Shown: positions 35,888 to 41,348 of the stretch, piece by piece
Numbering within the stretch: the first letter of the stretch is position 1
Layout of the letters: each line of letters starts with the position of its first letter
Assembly: GCA_046051205.1 (NCBI GenBank)
Contig: JBJOOQ010000001.1
Span: forward strand, 1 to 52,301
Reading direction: 5' to 3'
Source of the DNA: Actinomycetota bacterium
Lineage (GTDB): Bacteria > Actinomycetota > Acidimicrobiia > Acidimicrobiales > Ilumatobacteraceae
Length of the DNA: 52,301 nt
The notes under the pieces: generated by a model
What the model was told of the DNA's origin: nothing
Database searches by the model: none
The model's input: only the letters and a program-made list of their open reading frames with translations
Position numbers and translations under genes: made by a program

Positions 35888-37072
35888 TTATTTGTAAGGC
35901 GAAATAATCACGGAGCCGTTATGGCCACCGAAACCAAAGTTGTTCGAGATGGTTGGTCCTGGTTCCCAAGGTCGGGCAGAGCCAATGACCACGTCAATGT
36001 TCATGTCTTCGCTAATTTGCTGAGTTCCTGCTGTCGGCGGGATCAACTTCTTTTCCATACTGAGAAGTACTGCCGCAGCCTCGAGTGCACCGGCCGCACC
36101 TAAAGGGTGACCCGTAACGCCCTTAATTGACACAACAGGAACGGTGTTTTTGCCAAACACGGTTTCGATCGCTTGTGATTCGGCTGCATCATTCAATGGA
36201 GTGCTCGTACCGTGAGCGTTGATCTGTTTGATGTCGCTTGGTTGCAAACCTGCGTCTTCAAGCGCCAATTGCATGCAACGTGAAGCGCCTACGCCACCTG
36301 GAGACGGTGCGGTGATGTGGTGAGCGTCGGCATTGCTTGCTGCGCCAACTATTTCGGCGATGATGGTTGCGCCACGTGCAATTGCAAGATCCATGCGTTC
36401 AAGCACAAACACTGCAGCACCTTCGCCCATGATGAAACCGTCGCGCGTGGCGTCAAACGGTTTGCTCACCAAGGTGCTGGATAGTGCGGTCATATTGCTA
36501 AACCCTGCGAGTGCAGTGATAGTTGCAGCGCTTTCAGCTCCACCAGTAACAACTGCATCGCATCTGCCCCAAGCAACAAGGCGTGCTGCATTGCCAATGG
36601 CATGAGTAGCTGCTGCACATGCTGTGCAAATGGTTTCAGTAGGGCCTTGAAACCCGTAGCGCATTGAAATTGCAGCACCAGAAGCGTTTGACATCATCAT
36701 GGGAACAAGAAATGGCGAAACACGACGTTCACCTTTTTCGACCCGAATGATGACATTCTCCTCAAGCGTGCGCAGGCCGCCAATGCCCGTTCCGAAGATG
36801 GTGCCGATGCGGGAGCGGTCATAAGGCAATTCGCCTGACTGCGCGATTGCTTCACCAGCAGCCGCAAGAGCGAATTGTTCGCAACGGTCAGAACGACGCG
36901 CATCTTTTGGATTGTCGAAATAGGGAAGCGGATCCCAGTTTTCAATCTCAATGGACTTCGAACCAGAGAAACCTGGCCCAAGGAGTCCTGTCCAAAAAGC
37001 CTCCTTACCGATACCGCACGGAGCAACCACTCCGTAACCAGTTATGGCAACGCGGTGACCAGCTCCTTGCAT
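35888..37072 (-). CDS. fabF: Beta-ketoacyl-ACP synthase II
   Basis: Active-site TACAAATHAIG, the HGTSTP and GHPLGAAG motifs, and C-terminal NNFGFGGHN. Confidence 0.93.
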   Translation of the reverse strand: MQGAGHRVAITGYGVVAPCGIGKEAFWTGLLGPGFSGSKSIEIENWDPLPYFDNPKDARRSDRCEQFALAAAGEAIAQSGELPYDRSRIGTIFGTGIGGLRTLEENVIIRVEKGERRVSPFLVPMMMSNASGAAISMRYGFQGPTETICTACAAATHAIGNAARLVAWGRCDAVVTGGAESAATITALAGFSNMTALSSTLVSKPFDATRDGFIMGEGAAVFVLERMDLAIARGATIIAEIVGAASNADAHHITAPSPGGVGASRCMQLALEDAGLQPSDIKQINAHGTSTPLNDAAESQAIETVFGKNTVPVVSIKGVTGHPLGAAGALEAAAVLLSMEKKLIPPTAGTQQISEDMNIDVVIGSARPWEPGPTISNNFGFGGHNGSVIISPYK

Positions 37073-37093: not shown

Positions 37094-37333
37094 TTACTTG
37101 ACTTTTGACGTGACGAGCGCGAAGGCTTTGCCGACAGTGTCGACACCTTCAAGGTCAGACTCAGGTACTTCAATACCGAATTCTTCTTCAAGTGCCATAA
37201 CGAGTTCAACCAAGTCGAGGCTGTCTGCATCAAGGTCGTCACCAAAGCTTGCTTCTGGGGTGATCTTCGAAGCATCTACTGACAACACATCTACTGCACA
37301 CTTGGTGAAGCGTTCAAACAATTCCTGGCTCAT
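37094..37333 (-). CDS. acpP: Acyl carrier protein
   Basis: 79 aa with the phosphopantetheine site LDADSLDLVELV. An AAGGAG SD precedes the ATG. Confidence 0.95.
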   Translation of the reverse strand: MSQELFERFTKCAVDVLSVDASKITPEASFGDDLDADSLDLVELVMALEEEFGIEVPESDLEGVDTVGKAFALVTSKVK

Positions 37334-37392: not shown

Positions 37393-38115
37393 TCAATGAC
37401 CCATGCCGAGCCCGCCATCAACGGGAATTACCGCACCCGTGATGTAGGCCGCTGCTGGGCTTGCAAGAAAAGTCACAACTCCTGCAATTTCGTCCACGGT
37501 TCCTGTTCGTCCGAGAGGTACTGCAGAAGCGATCTCTTCGAGTCGCTTTTCACCGAGCGCTGCGGTCATATCGGTGTCGATTGGGCCAGGAGCAACCACA
37601 TTGACGGTGATTGAACGCGAACCCAATTCTCGCGCCAACGAACGGGCGAGTCCCACTAAGCCTGCTTTGCTTGCTGAGTAATTTGCTTGTCCGGCAGAGC
37701 CCATCAACGCGACAACGCTCGACATCAAGATGATGCGACCAGATCGTGCGCGCAACATGCCTTGCGTTGCACGTTTGCAGACTCGATATGCGGCGGTGAG
37801 GTTGGCGTCTATGACAGATGAAAAGTCATCTTCGCCCATGCGCAGAAGAAGTCCGTCTCGCGTGATTCCTGCATTCGAAACAAGAATTTGTACGGGACCA
37901 AACTTCTCTTCGATTGCCTTGAATGCGTTGTCTACATCTTCGTTGTCTGTTACGTCGCACTTCACTGCGAAAAATTCGCCAGGTGGCGGCGAAGAGTTGT
38001 AGGTAACTGCAACGTGATCACCGAGTGCTGCGAAGTGACGCGCGCAGGCAAGTCCGATGCCGCGAGAACCGCCAGTAACTAAGACCACTCGCGGTGATGT
38101 TGTTTCAGTGGTCAT
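37393..38115 (-). CDS. fabG: 3-oxoacyl-ACP reductase
   Basis: VTGGSRGIG, NAGI, and S...YSASKAG, in a FAS-II context. ATGA overlap with the fabH stop. Confidence 0.9.
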   Translation of the reverse strand: MTTETTSPRVVLVTGGSRGIGLACARHFAALGDHVAVTYNSSPPPGEFFAVKCDVTDNEDVDNAFKAIEEKFGPVQILVSNAGITRDGLLLRMGEDDFSSVIDANLTAAYRVCKRATQGMLRARSGRIILMSSVVALMGSAGQANYSASKAGLVGLARSLARELGSRSITVNVVAPGPIDTDMTAALGEKRLEEIASAVPLGRTGTVDEIAGVVTFLASPAAAYITGAVIPVDGGLGMGH

Positions 38116-39089
38116 GCTCGGAGTCCCTTTCCGTTCCAACGCAACACGGCACTTGCTGCGGTCATTCCAGCGCCGAATCCAACGACCAAAACCAGATCGC
38201 CTTCGCGCAATGTGCGTCCGCTCATAGCGCCACCGTTGGCAGCATCGAATAAAGCAAGTGGAATTGAGGCAGAAGACGTGTTGCCTGTTTCGTGCAACAC
38301 CGTGCTGGTGCGATCCATCGGTATGCCGAGGCGTTCACAAGCTGCACTGATGATTCTGGTGTTTGCTTGGTGGGGGACGATGAGTGCAATGTCATCAGCG
38401 GTAACTCCGGCAATGTGCATGGACTTTTGTGCGGAGTCAACCATGATGCGTACTGCGCGACGAAATACCTCTTTGCCATCCATATGAATGTTTCCGCCTA
38501 TTTCGGCGTAGAGCAATTCTTCGGCGGAGCCATCGGCATCTAAGTCCCAGCCGAGCAATTCGGATTCACCAGTTGTTGCTTCGATAACGGCTGCACCAGA
38601 ACCATCGGCAAACAAAATTGCAGTATTGCGATCGGTCCAGTCAGTTATCCGCGAAAGAGTGTCGGTGCCGATGAGGAGAACTTTCTTTGAGCCCATAGCA
38701 ATAAGTCCATGAGCAACAACGAGTCCGTACACAAAACCGGAACAGGCAGCATTGATGTCGAATGCCCCGCACTTCAAGCCAAGCAAATTCTGCACTGTTG
38801 CTGAAGTTGCAGGTACTTGACGATCTGGGGTGGTGGTCGACAACACAAGAGCGTCAATTTGGTCTGGAAAAACACCAGCCATCTCCATGGCGATTCGCCC
38901 GCTCTCTACTGAGAGTTCAGCGGTGCTTCCGCCAATATGTCGGCGATGAATACCGGTTCGCTCGCGGATCCATTCGTCGGAAGTCTCCATAGTCTTCGAC
39001 AAATCATTATTTGTCACAACCTTCGGAGGAAGTGCAGTGCCCCAACCAGTGATGACGCCACCGATGGCGTTCGCGGGAATGGTTGGCAT
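38112..39089 (-). CDS. fabH: Beta-ketoacyl-ACP synthase III
   Basis: INAACSGF active-site Cys, HQAN, GNTSSASIP, and GFGAGMT. An alternative TTG start lies at 39119. Confidence 0.92.
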   Translation of the reverse strand: MPTIPANAIGGVITGWGTALPPKVVTNNDLSKTMETSDEWIRERTGIHRRHIGGSTAELSVESGRIAMEMAGVFPDQIDALVLSTTTPDRQVPATSATVQNLLGLKCGAFDINAACSGFVYGLVVAHGLIAMGSKKVLLIGTDTLSRITDWTDRNTAILFADGSGAAVIEATTGESELLGWDLDADGSAEELLYAEIGGNIHMDGKEVFRRAVRIMVDSAQKSMHIAGVTADDIALIVPHQANTRIISAACERLGIPMDRTSTVLHETGNTSSASIPLALFDAANGGAMSGRTLREGDLVLVVGFGAGMTAASAVLRWNGKGLRA

Positions 39090-39100
39090 GCGAATAAACC

Positions 39101-40288
39101 TTAGTGAGTTCGCAACCAAGCGATTGGTTGATGCGCAGTCACACGTTCTCCGTCAACAGCAATGAAGTTTTGCAAAATGCCAGAAAACGGGGAACGAACT
39201 TCAGTTTCTGCAACATGACCGATGATCTGTCCAACTTCGATTCGCGACTTATTGGTTACGGATGAGATCTTCTGAAACAAACCAGCGGCTGGAGAAACCA
39301 CCATACGTTCAACTGCAAAGAGATGTTCGCCTTCATGGACAGAACCAGGAGGCAATGTGGCTGTTGGCTGAAGTGCGTCGATCCATTCAATTAACTTGTC
39401 AAGATCATCGGGCGTGGCAACGCTGATTGATTTCGATCCCTCAATGGTTCGCTTGGCCATTCCAGTGAGCACGCCACCTGGACCAAGTTCAATAAAGCCG
39501 ACGATGCCAGCCTCGGCCATGGTGAGCAAGCAATGCTTCCAGCGCACTGGTGATGAAAGTTGGGCTGACAACAGGGTTGACCATTCTTCGCCGCTGTCGT
39601 GTGCACGTGCATCAACGTTGCTGATCACCGGTACGTCAATGTTGCGCGGTTTGGCAAGCGCAATTGCCTCGCGCAGACGTTCGCGCGCGCTGGTCATGTA
39701 TGGGGTGTGGAACGCACCCGATACGGGTAGTGCCATCACACGTTTTGCCCCGAGCGCCTTTGCTTGTTCAGTTGCTTTTGCAACTCCTTCTACGGAACCA
39801 GCAATAACGATCTGACCGGGAGCATTGAAGTTGGCAACCCACACATCGCTGTCGGCAAGTCGACATGCTGTTTCAACTTCGTCGTCATCTAGTCCAAGAA
39901 CCGCAGCCATCGTGCCGGGCGATTCGTTTCCTGCATCGTGCATCGCATCTGCTCTGGCCACAACAAGACGAATGCCTTCATCGAAACCAAGCGCACCCGT
40001 TGCGGCAAGCGCTGTGTATTCACCGAGGCTGTGTCCCGCGCAGAGGCTGGGCTCAATGCCAAGACGCTCAACAGCGTCGAGCACCATCAGCGATGACACA
40101 AAAGTGGTCAACTGGGCGTTGCGTGTGTCCTTAAGCTCCTCGGCATCGGCTTCTAAGAGGAGTCGGCCAACGTCGCGGCCAGAAATATCGGAAGCTTCCG
40201 TGACGAGTTCCCAGCTGTCATGGCCAACCCAGGGTTGGCCCATACCAGGGCGCTGTGAACCCTGACCTGGAAAGGTGAACGCAAGCAT
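39101..40288 (-). CDS. fabD: ACP S-malonyltransferase fused to a C-terminal biotinyl/lipoyl-like (BCCP-like) domain without the modifiable lysine
   Basis: The FabD core has FPGQGSQ, GHSLGEY, and VSGAFHTP...GPGGVLTG. It is followed by about 90 extra residues: VVSPAAGLFQ...RIEVGQIIGHVAETEVRSPFSGILQNFIAVDGERV. ATG at 40288. Confidence 0.88.
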   Translation of the reverse strand: MLAFTFPGQGSQRPGMGQPWVGHDSWELVTEASDISGRDVGRLLLEADAEELKDTRNAQLTTFVSSLMVLDAVERLGIEPSLCAGHSLGEYTALAATGALGFDEGIRLVVARADAMHDAGNESPGTMAAVLGLDDDEVETACRLADSDVWVANFNAPGQIVIAGSVEGVAKATEQAKALGAKRVMALPVSGAFHTPYMTSARERLREAIALAKPRNIDVPVISNVDARAHDSGEEWSTLLSAQLSSPVRWKHCLLTMAEAGIVGFIELGPGGVLTGMAKRTIEGSKSISVATPDDLDKLIEWIDALQPTATLPPGSVHEGEHLFAVERMVVSPAAGLFQKISSVTNKSRIEVGQIIGHVAETEVRSPFSGILQNFIAVDGERVTAHQPIAWLRTH

Positions 40289-40346
40289 GTCGGGCACAAG
40301 CGTAGAACTTCCAAGGGGTCGGTACGCTGTTTCCCACTTCACTCAA

Positions 40347-40432
40347 GCCCGAGTGGCGGAATGGCAGACGCGACGGACTCAAAATCCGTTATTCGAAAGG
40401 GTGTGTGGGTTCAACTCCCACCTCGGGCACCA
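40347..40432 (+). tRNA. tRNA-Leu (anticodon CAA), CCA encoded
   Basis: Acceptor stem GCCCGAG/CTCGGGC, D-arm GGCGGAATGG, anticodon loop CT-CAA-AA, a long variable arm, T-arm GTGGGTTCAACTCCCAC, discriminator A, then CCA. Confidence 0.93.
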
Positions 40433-40434
40433 AC

Positions 40435-40761
40435 ATGGACACTCCTACACTCGCTGATGTGAACGTTCGCGGAGTTGCCCACAGGCTCATTGAAAAGCGG
40501 CTCCGCCGAAATTCTGAGAACTTGAAGCAACTACAAACTGAACTTACGTTGTTGGACGAACAACTAGACGCGCTGCGTAATGATGCGAATGACAAAGAGA
40601 TGCGCAGCTTGGTTTCAGAAACACCTCTCGCATTGCATGAATATCGCGATGCGCAGAAGCACGTAGAAGCATTGCTCGAGCATCGCGATTTTCTGCTTCG
40701 TGCGATTGCTGAGCAAACGAGAAATCAAGATGAATTGTTGGACAGGCTGGGGAAGAACTGA
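40435..40761 (+). CDS. Hypothetical coiled-coil protein (108 aa)
   Basis: The ATG at 40435 lies 2 nt after the tRNA CCA. The sequence is heptad-like and charged (NSENLKQLQTELTLLDEQLDALRNDANDKE...). Its stop overlaps the ATG of the ANTAR regulator (ATGA-type). The ORF-track start at 40405 lies inside the tRNA. Confidence 0.6.
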   Translation: MDTPTLADVNVRGVAHRLIEKRLRRNSENLKQLQTELTLLDEQLDALRNDANDKEMRSLVSETPLALHEYRDAQKHVEALLEHRDFLLRAIAEQTRNQDELLDRLGKN

Positions 40762-41348
40762 TGCCTAACCCAGTTCGAATTGTTGTTGCAGAAGACGAAG
40801 CGATTATTCGTTTGGATCTTGTTGAAACATTGCGAGAAGAGGGTTACGACGTGGTCGCCGATACTGGCCGTGGTGATACTGCGATTGAACTCGTTCGTGA
40901 GCACAAACCGGATGTTGCAATTTTCGATATCAAAATGCCTGGGCTTGATGGACTTGCGGCCGCACAAGTGGTGTCGGCAGAAAAGATCTGCCCAGTCGTC
41001 ATGTTGACGGCATTCAGCCAACGTGAAGTTATTGAGCAAGCGCGTGATGCCGGCGCTTTGGCTTATCTCGTAAAGCCATTTCAGAAGACAGATTTAGTTC
41101 CTGCAATCGAGTTGGCAATTGGACGTTTCGCGGAAATGAAATTGCTTAGTGGCGAGCGTGACGCCCTGGACGAGCAACTGCAATTACGAAAAGTGCTCGA
41201 CCGCGCAAAGGGAATCCTCATTGATTCCTTTTCCATGTCCGAGCAGGCTGCCTTTGATTTCATTCAAAAAGGGGCAATGTCGTCGCGGTCGCGAATGAAA
41301 GATGTTGCGCAGCGGGTGATTGACGGCGATCTCACGCCCAATTCGTGA
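40761..41348 (+). CDS. pdtaR: ANTAR-domain response regulator (PdtaR/AmiR-like)
   Basis: Receiver domain (VVAEDE, FDIKMPGLDG, LTAF, KPF) plus an ANTAR helix region (LQLRKVLDRAKGILIDSFSMSEQAAFDFIQKGAM). Conserved position upstream of polA in actinobacteria. Confidence 0.88.
   Translation: MPNPVRIVVAEDEAIIRLDLVETLREEGYDVVADTGRGDTAIELVREHKPDVAIFDIKMPGLDGLAAAQVVSAEKICPVVMLTAFSQREVIEQARDAGALAYLVKPFQKTDLVPAIELAIGRFAEMKLLSGERDALDEQLQLRKVLDRAKGILIDSFSMSEQAAFDFIQKGAMSSRSRMKDVAQRVIDGDLTPNS

Follow-up and report, generated by a model that had tools for sequence, protein, structure and literature searches.

Results

The window analysed here is the whole 52,301-nucleotide stretch at positions 1 to 52,301 of the forward strand of contig JBJOOQ010000001.1 (GenBank assembly GCA_046051205.1), from a freshwater member of the Actinomycetota, family Ilumatobacteraceae. 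Its subject is a fatty-acid synthesis gene, fabD, which encodes a malonyl-CoA:acyl carrier protein (ACP) transacylase that continues into an additional C-terminal domain. The open reading frame (ORF) is open from 39101 to 40342 on the minus strand and, with the ATG at 40288 taken as the start, encodes 395 amino acids arranged as a FabD catalytic core (residues 1-306; 39371..40288), a linker (residues 307-326; 39311..39370) and a barrel-sandwich hybrid (BSH) domain of 69 residues (327-395; 39104..39310), all on the minus strand. The TAA stop (39101..39103, minus strand) is followed after 11 nt by the ATG of fabH (38112..39089, minus strand), which encodes 3-ketoacyl-ACP synthase III (KAS III), matches PF08545 and PF08541 and is aligned by its homologues from the ATG at 39089. 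Further genes follow on the same strand: fabG (37393..38139), acpP for the acyl carrier protein (37094..37333; an ORF with a DSLD motif) and fabF for KAS II (35888..37072), with tblastn showing the order fabD-[BSH]-fabH-fabG-acpP-fabF to be conserved across loci. Beyond fabF lies a fabZ-like gene in convergent orientation.

The protein belongs to the FabD family, and a complete FabD makes up its N-terminal part. It reaches 282 bits on TIGR00128 (cut-off 260.9), Acyl_transf_1 (PF00698) spans residues 4-291, and the gene sits in a fab operon with fabH, fabG, acpP and fabF. The serine motif GHSLGEY occupies residues 85-91, and 50 fused homologues show little or no variation at GHSLGE, R112 and H194. 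In the full-length AlphaFold2 model the core reaches a predicted local distance difference test score (pLDDT) of ~95. The canonical FabDs of E. coli (1MLA), S. coelicolor (1NM2) and M. tuberculosis (2QC3) align with the core end to end at E-values of 1e-40 to 1e-59 and have the catalytic motif GHSLGE, Arg and His in common with it. Almost all solved FabDs have lengths of ~290-340 aa; all align to residues 1 to ~300 of the window protein only, and a C-terminal barrel is seen in none. Two longer FabD-like chains, 3g87 (394 aa) and mitochondrial MCAT 8csp (390 aa), were compared by their FabD part only; residues 8-285 of 3g87_A match the window FabD, and that chain is absent from the fold matches listed for the barrel. 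The original prediction, made from the sequence alone, of a full FabD core followed by an extension is borne out by these matches, and the strings that it had picked out as barrel-like, VVSPAAGLFQ, RIEVGQII, SPFSGILQNFIAVDGERV and AETEV, are all present in the 395-aa ORF.

Structure prediction and profile comparison show the C-terminal 69 residues as a predicted variant of the biotinyl/lipoyl carrier fold that is neither catalytic nor modifiable. Modelled alone, the barrel has an AlphaFold2 pLDDT of ~98, and within the full-length model 91-96; it is continuous over the 69 residues and contains no helices. The top Foldseek matches are biotinyl domains of the biotin carboxyl carrier protein (BCCP; 5gua, 2evb, 2ejf and 1bdo), with template modelling (TM) scores by target of 0.75-0.85 and root mean square deviations of 1.3-2.2 Å, followed by the lipoyl-type domain of the adaptor BesA (4KKT). 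A profile built from 30 domain-length relatives (A1), searched against the PDB, finds P. horikoshii BCCP (2d5d) at an E-value of 7.5e-5. The Pfam comparison is less clear: PF00364 scores 20.8 bits on the isolated last 99 residues and 15.2 bits in the whole protein, short of its cut-off of 22.1. In the profile check called for by the original prediction the Pfam model stays just under threshold and the domain's own profile reaches BCCP in the PDB; the proposal of a BCCP-type hybrid barrel is upheld. Other hybrid-barrel families, including TIGR01730 and HlyD_3, match the extension weakly, RND_mfp scoring 15.9-19.3 bits against a cut-off of 94.9. The family has conserved motifs of its own, namely GE-h-L before strand 1, SPF-G, GER-V and a C-terminal AWLR, and E327 and R328 are also conserved. 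As a separate observation, P0160, an 872-aa metagenomic protein with six tandem ~120-aa repeats followed by a CheW-like tail, matches region 33-88 of the barrel profile at an E-value of 3e-14; this could be a distant array of hybrid barrels or a repeat unrelated to them.

Where BCCP has its E-A-M-K-M biotinylation hairpin, the barrel carries a shortened β-hairpin, GHVAETEVRS (residues 357-366; 39191..39220, minus strand). Profile alignment places a 4-residue gap exactly on E-A-M-K of P. horikoshii BCCP, and the same gap, over xAMK, separates the barrel from both biotinyl domains of this genome, which read EAMKME in the biotin carboxylase (BC)-BCCP subunit and ESMKME in the fusion of BCCP with carboxyltransferase (CT) and share 16-18% identity with the barrel. 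The (A/V)-M-K-M lysine is thus missing. Among 393 family members just four have any lysine in the hairpin segment, and its position is not conserved; the tip is D/E-x-E with residues that vary among lineages. The original prediction that no lysine is available for modification is confirmed across the family. The extension has the BCCP fold yet falls outside the definition of a biotinyl domain on three counts: it has no acceptor lysine, stays under the Pfam threshold and is not associated with a carboxylase. In the examined loci the domain was found with fabD and fabH, with type III polyketide synthase (PKS) genes or with DegT, and not with carboxylase or decarboxylase genes.

The biotin-dependent enzymes of the genome have a peculiarity of their own. 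On contig C41 of this genome (G000), outside the window, a 609-aa protein (L007:866-2695 (+)) has an N-terminal, lysine-bearing biotinyl domain, that with ESMKME, fused directly to a carboxyltransferase; a 559-aa BC-BCCP subunit (L002:28-1707) and a 456-aa CT (L006:1489-2859) are encoded separately. This is an unusual split of acyl-CoA carboxylase domains.

Between core and barrel, residues 308-325 of the full-length AlphaFold2 model have pLDDT below 50 and the predicted TM-score (pTM) of the whole model is 0.76. The barrel would be a tethered, mobile domain, and the model shows FabD as probable beads on a string with a flexible tether of ~20 residues. A conserved E-G-E-H-L-F motif (residues 319-324; 39317-39334, minus strand) forms the end of the linker, and its G320 and E321 are conserved in at least 90% of the 50 fused homologues.

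The fusion is genuine and the barrel is under purifying selection. The C-terminal part is common to 1,833 proteins of near FabD-plus-domain length, most of them 376-398 aa, named ACP S-malonyltransferase and derived from Ilumatobacteraceae and acIV freshwater metagenome-assembled genomes; a single-protein scan for related loci returned close Ilumatobacteraceae/acIV relatives only. Among close relatives the ratio of nonsynonymous to synonymous substitution rates (dN/dS) lies at 0.03-0.09 in the barrel and ~0-0.05 in the linker, compared with 0.008-0.03 in the core. A frameshift or missed stop is ruled out by the 1,833 proteins of the same architecture, the in-frame relatives and the barrel dN/dS. 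The fusion asserted by the original prediction is therefore real. The same evidence bears on the reading of the extension as an annotation artefact or a relic in decay, produced by read-through into a degenerate, functionless neighbour gene. The sub-threshold Pfam scores are what such a relic might give, but the selection on the barrel, its prediction at pLDDT 91-98, the shared architecture and the retention of the module in several classes of Actinomycetota effectively refute it. Apparent new fusions returned by a representative search (P0181, P0254, P0234, P0227 and others) were discarded as frameshifted, low-quality predictions.

The domain is conserved across the phylum, in some lineages fused to FabD and in others encoded by a gene of its own that lies between fabD and fabH. 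The barrel profile matches 149 of 401 sampled Actinomycetota genomes at E<=1e-3, and strong matches (E<=3e-9) occur in about 86 of the 401, roughly one in five. These two tallies include 12 unpublished genomes (G148, G336, G391, G120, G001, G239, G226, G018, G174, G343, G088 and G082), and statements on architecture, tree and alignment are drawn from published genomes. Gene context was examined in 61 published loci. The domain lies between fabD and fabH in 56 of these, in the order fabD-[BSH]-fabH-(fabG)-acpP-fabF, and the median distance from the BSH stop to the projected fabH start is 1 nt, with 54 of the 61 loci inside -40 to +60 nt; the 11 nt of the window is within this range. Every one of the 21 sampled Acidimicrobiales genomes with the domain has it in frame with FabD, as does a high-GC soil lineage, family f19 (10 genomes). 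It is also fused to FabD in Micromonospora and Nocardioides, named via the neighbouring ACP gene, where the barrel is more divergent. In families f14, f21, f42, f47, f67 and others it is a separate gene of ~95 aa whose stop is usually close to, or overlaps, the projected fabH start. A separate small gene in relatives had been put forward in the original prediction as a possible sign of an artefactual ORF. Such a gene does occur in other Actinomycetota, as an orthologous stand-alone form, but the ORF of the window has no frameshift. On an unrooted tree of the FabD core the fused/split state has changed at least twice. Many lineages of the 401-genome survey lack the domain, including a large-genome family with multiple AccE and families with genomes of ~1.3 Mb. 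In f19 the FabH proteins (L125, L127, L129-L133, L135 and L138) are 367-394 aa long, compared with ~325 aa elsewhere, the excess being a C-terminal extension of roughly 45-60 residues.

Family members also occur away from fabD, and the neighbourhoods of paralogues were scanned with Pfam on ORFs filtered by GC content at the third codon position. In genome G109 the barrel gene (L151:2992-3564 (-)) precedes fabH-acpP-fabF at a spacing of ~250 nt. The Acyl_transf_1 (FabD-type) genes of this genome all lie on other contigs, one of them within a 1,797-aa PKS-like frame. Three genomes of a single high-GC actinobacterial genus (G094, G202 and G267) each have a stand-alone paralogue that is immediately followed by a type III PKS gene with the KAS III fold, at the loci L149:2770-4420 (+), L141:2767-4373 (+) and L158:1898-3507 (-). 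No FabD was found near these type III PKS-linked paralogues in the three genomes, and their other flank holds unrelated, divergently oriented genes. The type III PKS-linked paralogue is close to the FabD-fused domain of f19. Two further members, at L143:648-1049 (+) and L145:2929-3330 (-) with E-values of ~1e-12 to 1e-13, follow a DegT-type sugar aminotransferase, that of L143 also preceding a sulfotransferase. Both carry a hairpin lysine (FNGGK), unlike the fab-linked forms.

Discussion

FabD makes malonyl-ACP, and FabH, the KAS III condensing enzyme, consumes it. The position of the barrel between the two genes, and its recurrence beside KAS III-fold genes where FabD is not adjacent, are consistent with a non-catalytic docking module at the initiation of type II fatty-acid synthesis (FAS II) that would most probably be aimed at the adjacent FabH, a reading which we favour tentatively and which is somewhat short of an even chance. 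Both protein binding by the barrel and the choice of KAS III as its partner are inferred here. Mechanistically, the disordered linker of ~20 residues with its EGEHLF motif would hold the barrel on FabD, the barrel would dock a partner protein at the initiation step and so keep FabD beside the FabH encoded immediately downstream, and FabD could then hand malonyl-ACP to FabH at close range. Contacts of mycobacterial FabD with FabH and other FAS II enzymes are reported in PMC2765072. In a wider and slightly more doubtful form of the proposal, the lysine-less carrier fold, whether fused to FabD or free, may couple FabD to KAS III (or to acetyl-CoA carboxylase, ACC) in a channelling complex for initiation, and may have been re-used for type III PKS.

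Several observations weigh against a KAS III partner. The adjacency to fabH is confounded by the fabD-fabH operon order, which is generally conserved in Actinomycetota. The pairing with type III PKS is known from one genus and the G109 arrangement from one genome, which makes two events at most. The domain is never fused to FabH itself, and in family f23 it sits between a DegT aminotransferase and a sulfotransferase, where a KAS III role does not fit. ACC also stays a plausible partner because the nearest structural relatives of the barrel are ACC carrier domains. Complex prediction for the domain (residues 19-99 of P0002) and a FabH dimer, run on our own alignments, gave a score of 0.01 and is no evidence either way.

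The original prediction had proposed that the barrel is a decoy that docks FabD onto ACC. In this case it would occupy the BCCP site on biotin carboxylase or carboxyltransferase and either channel malonyl-CoA to FabD or damp ACC in the manner of plant BADCs. The best sequence and structure matches are indeed ACC-type biotinyl domains, the predicted long flexible tether would suit anchorage to a large complex, and the BC-BCCP subunit, the BCCP-CT fusion and the CT subunit are all encoded in this genome. Plant BADCs provide a precedent as lysine-less BCCP homologues which, according to PMC12706156 and 10.1101/634550, regulate ACC; they inhibit heteromeric ACCase and are reported to act on biotin carboxylase. 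Other features weigh against the idea. In BCCP the hairpin that carries biotin enters the active sites of BC and CT. The barrel hairpin is four residues shorter and acidic, the identity to the biotinyl domains of the genome is as low as given above, and there is no BCCP-like N-terminal region for binding BC. The ACC genes are found on other contigs, and no family member examined adjoins an ACC gene. Nor does the presence of AccE (PF13822) show a complementary or matching pattern with the domain: a survey of the 401 genomes, among which G268 is also unpublished, revealed no clean complementarity, did not find AccE in Acidimicrobiia or f14, and showed that Micromonospora, Nocardioides and part of the f19 genomes have both AccE and the fused form. 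Docking onto ACC thus gained no support from these comparisons and is unlikely.

The barrel might instead act on FabD itself or on its substrate carrier, with no third enzyme involved; it could, for example, recruit ACP, gate the active site or promote oligomerisation. Its repeated and stable fusion to FabD specifically, and never to FabH, is what such an accessory would predict, and the conserved R328, R365 and R393 could suit the binding of acidic ACP. In the full-length model, however, the barrel is not docked on the core, the linker being disordered and the pTM of the model 0.76, and neither in G109 nor beside the type III PKS genes does the domain have an adjacent FabD; an accessory intrinsic to FabD is improbable. 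Far less probable still is a true carrier, with a non-canonical prosthetic group or a modification on another residue. Although the swinging-arm carrier fold and flexible tether are those of a carrier, the barrel has no conserved lysine, the D/E-x-E hairpin tip is built of lineage-variable residues and the domain has no associated ligase or transferase gene.

Comparison with known systems likens the barrel functionally to other uses of this fold without a prosthetic group. With the BCCP biotinyl domain (2D5D/2EVB/5GUA and 1BDO) the barrel shares the barrel-sandwich hybrid fold, SPxxGxh in both halves and a flexible tether, but it lacks (A/V)-M-K-M, has a hairpin four residues shorter, scores under the PF00364 cut-off, has its own conserved motifs and is attached to FabD or encoded beside fabH rather than joined to BC or CT. 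Plant BADCs are likewise biotin-carrier homologues within fatty-acid synthesis that cannot be biotinylated. Whereas BADCs are free-standing, full-length BCCP look-alikes, the window domain is a barrel only, with a truncated hairpin and linkage to FabD/FabH, and the two are likened by shared fold alone. The lipoyl-type domains of HlyD and other membrane-fusion proteins (BesA, 4KKT) also employ a lysine-less fold as a structural or adaptor module. These periplasmic adaptors have half-barrels interrupted by an α-hairpin, unlike the barrel of the window, which is continuous, cytoplasmic and FAS II-linked and so falls outside that family. The linkers between ketosynthase and acyltransferase domains of type I fatty-acid and polyketide synthases provide a functional analogy only, as non-catalytic elements that hold an acyltransferase and a ketosynthase together; fold and domain order differ and no homology is claimed.

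Type II fatty-acid synthesis is the textbook pathway of separate, freely diffusing enzymes, and how the malonyl unit passes from ACC to FabD and on to the condensing enzymes is still debated. Here a strongly selected accessory domain sits exactly at the FabD/FabH junction in roughly one fifth of the sampled Actinomycetota. Protein-protein contacts of mycobacterial FAS II are considered drug targets. The question of its role is directly testable because the carriers of the domain include the culturable and genetically tractable Micromonospora and Nocardioides; Ilumatobacter is a further cultured carrier. The domain would also be a bacterial addition to the short list of carrier folds turned adaptors, alongside the plant BADCs and membrane-fusion lipoyl-type domains. 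Full-text literature searches found no paper on the FabD-barrel fusion, of which the original prediction had also known no description, or on the stand-alone form linked to fabD-fabH. Database entries label these proteins ACP S-malonyltransferase or hypothetical protein, and the barrel would be a reason for annotators not to call them plain FabD.

Upstream of the operon, a tRNA-Leu(CAA) gene lies on the opposite strand at 40347-40432 (+), 58 nt from the fabD start, and because of this proximity very little space is available for a fabD promoter. In the adjoining region (40405-41348 (+)) a 118-aa ORF, whose listed start falls within the tRNA-Leu gene, matches no Pfam family; it abuts an ANTAR response regulator (40761-41348), the stop of the ORF overlapping the start of the regulator.
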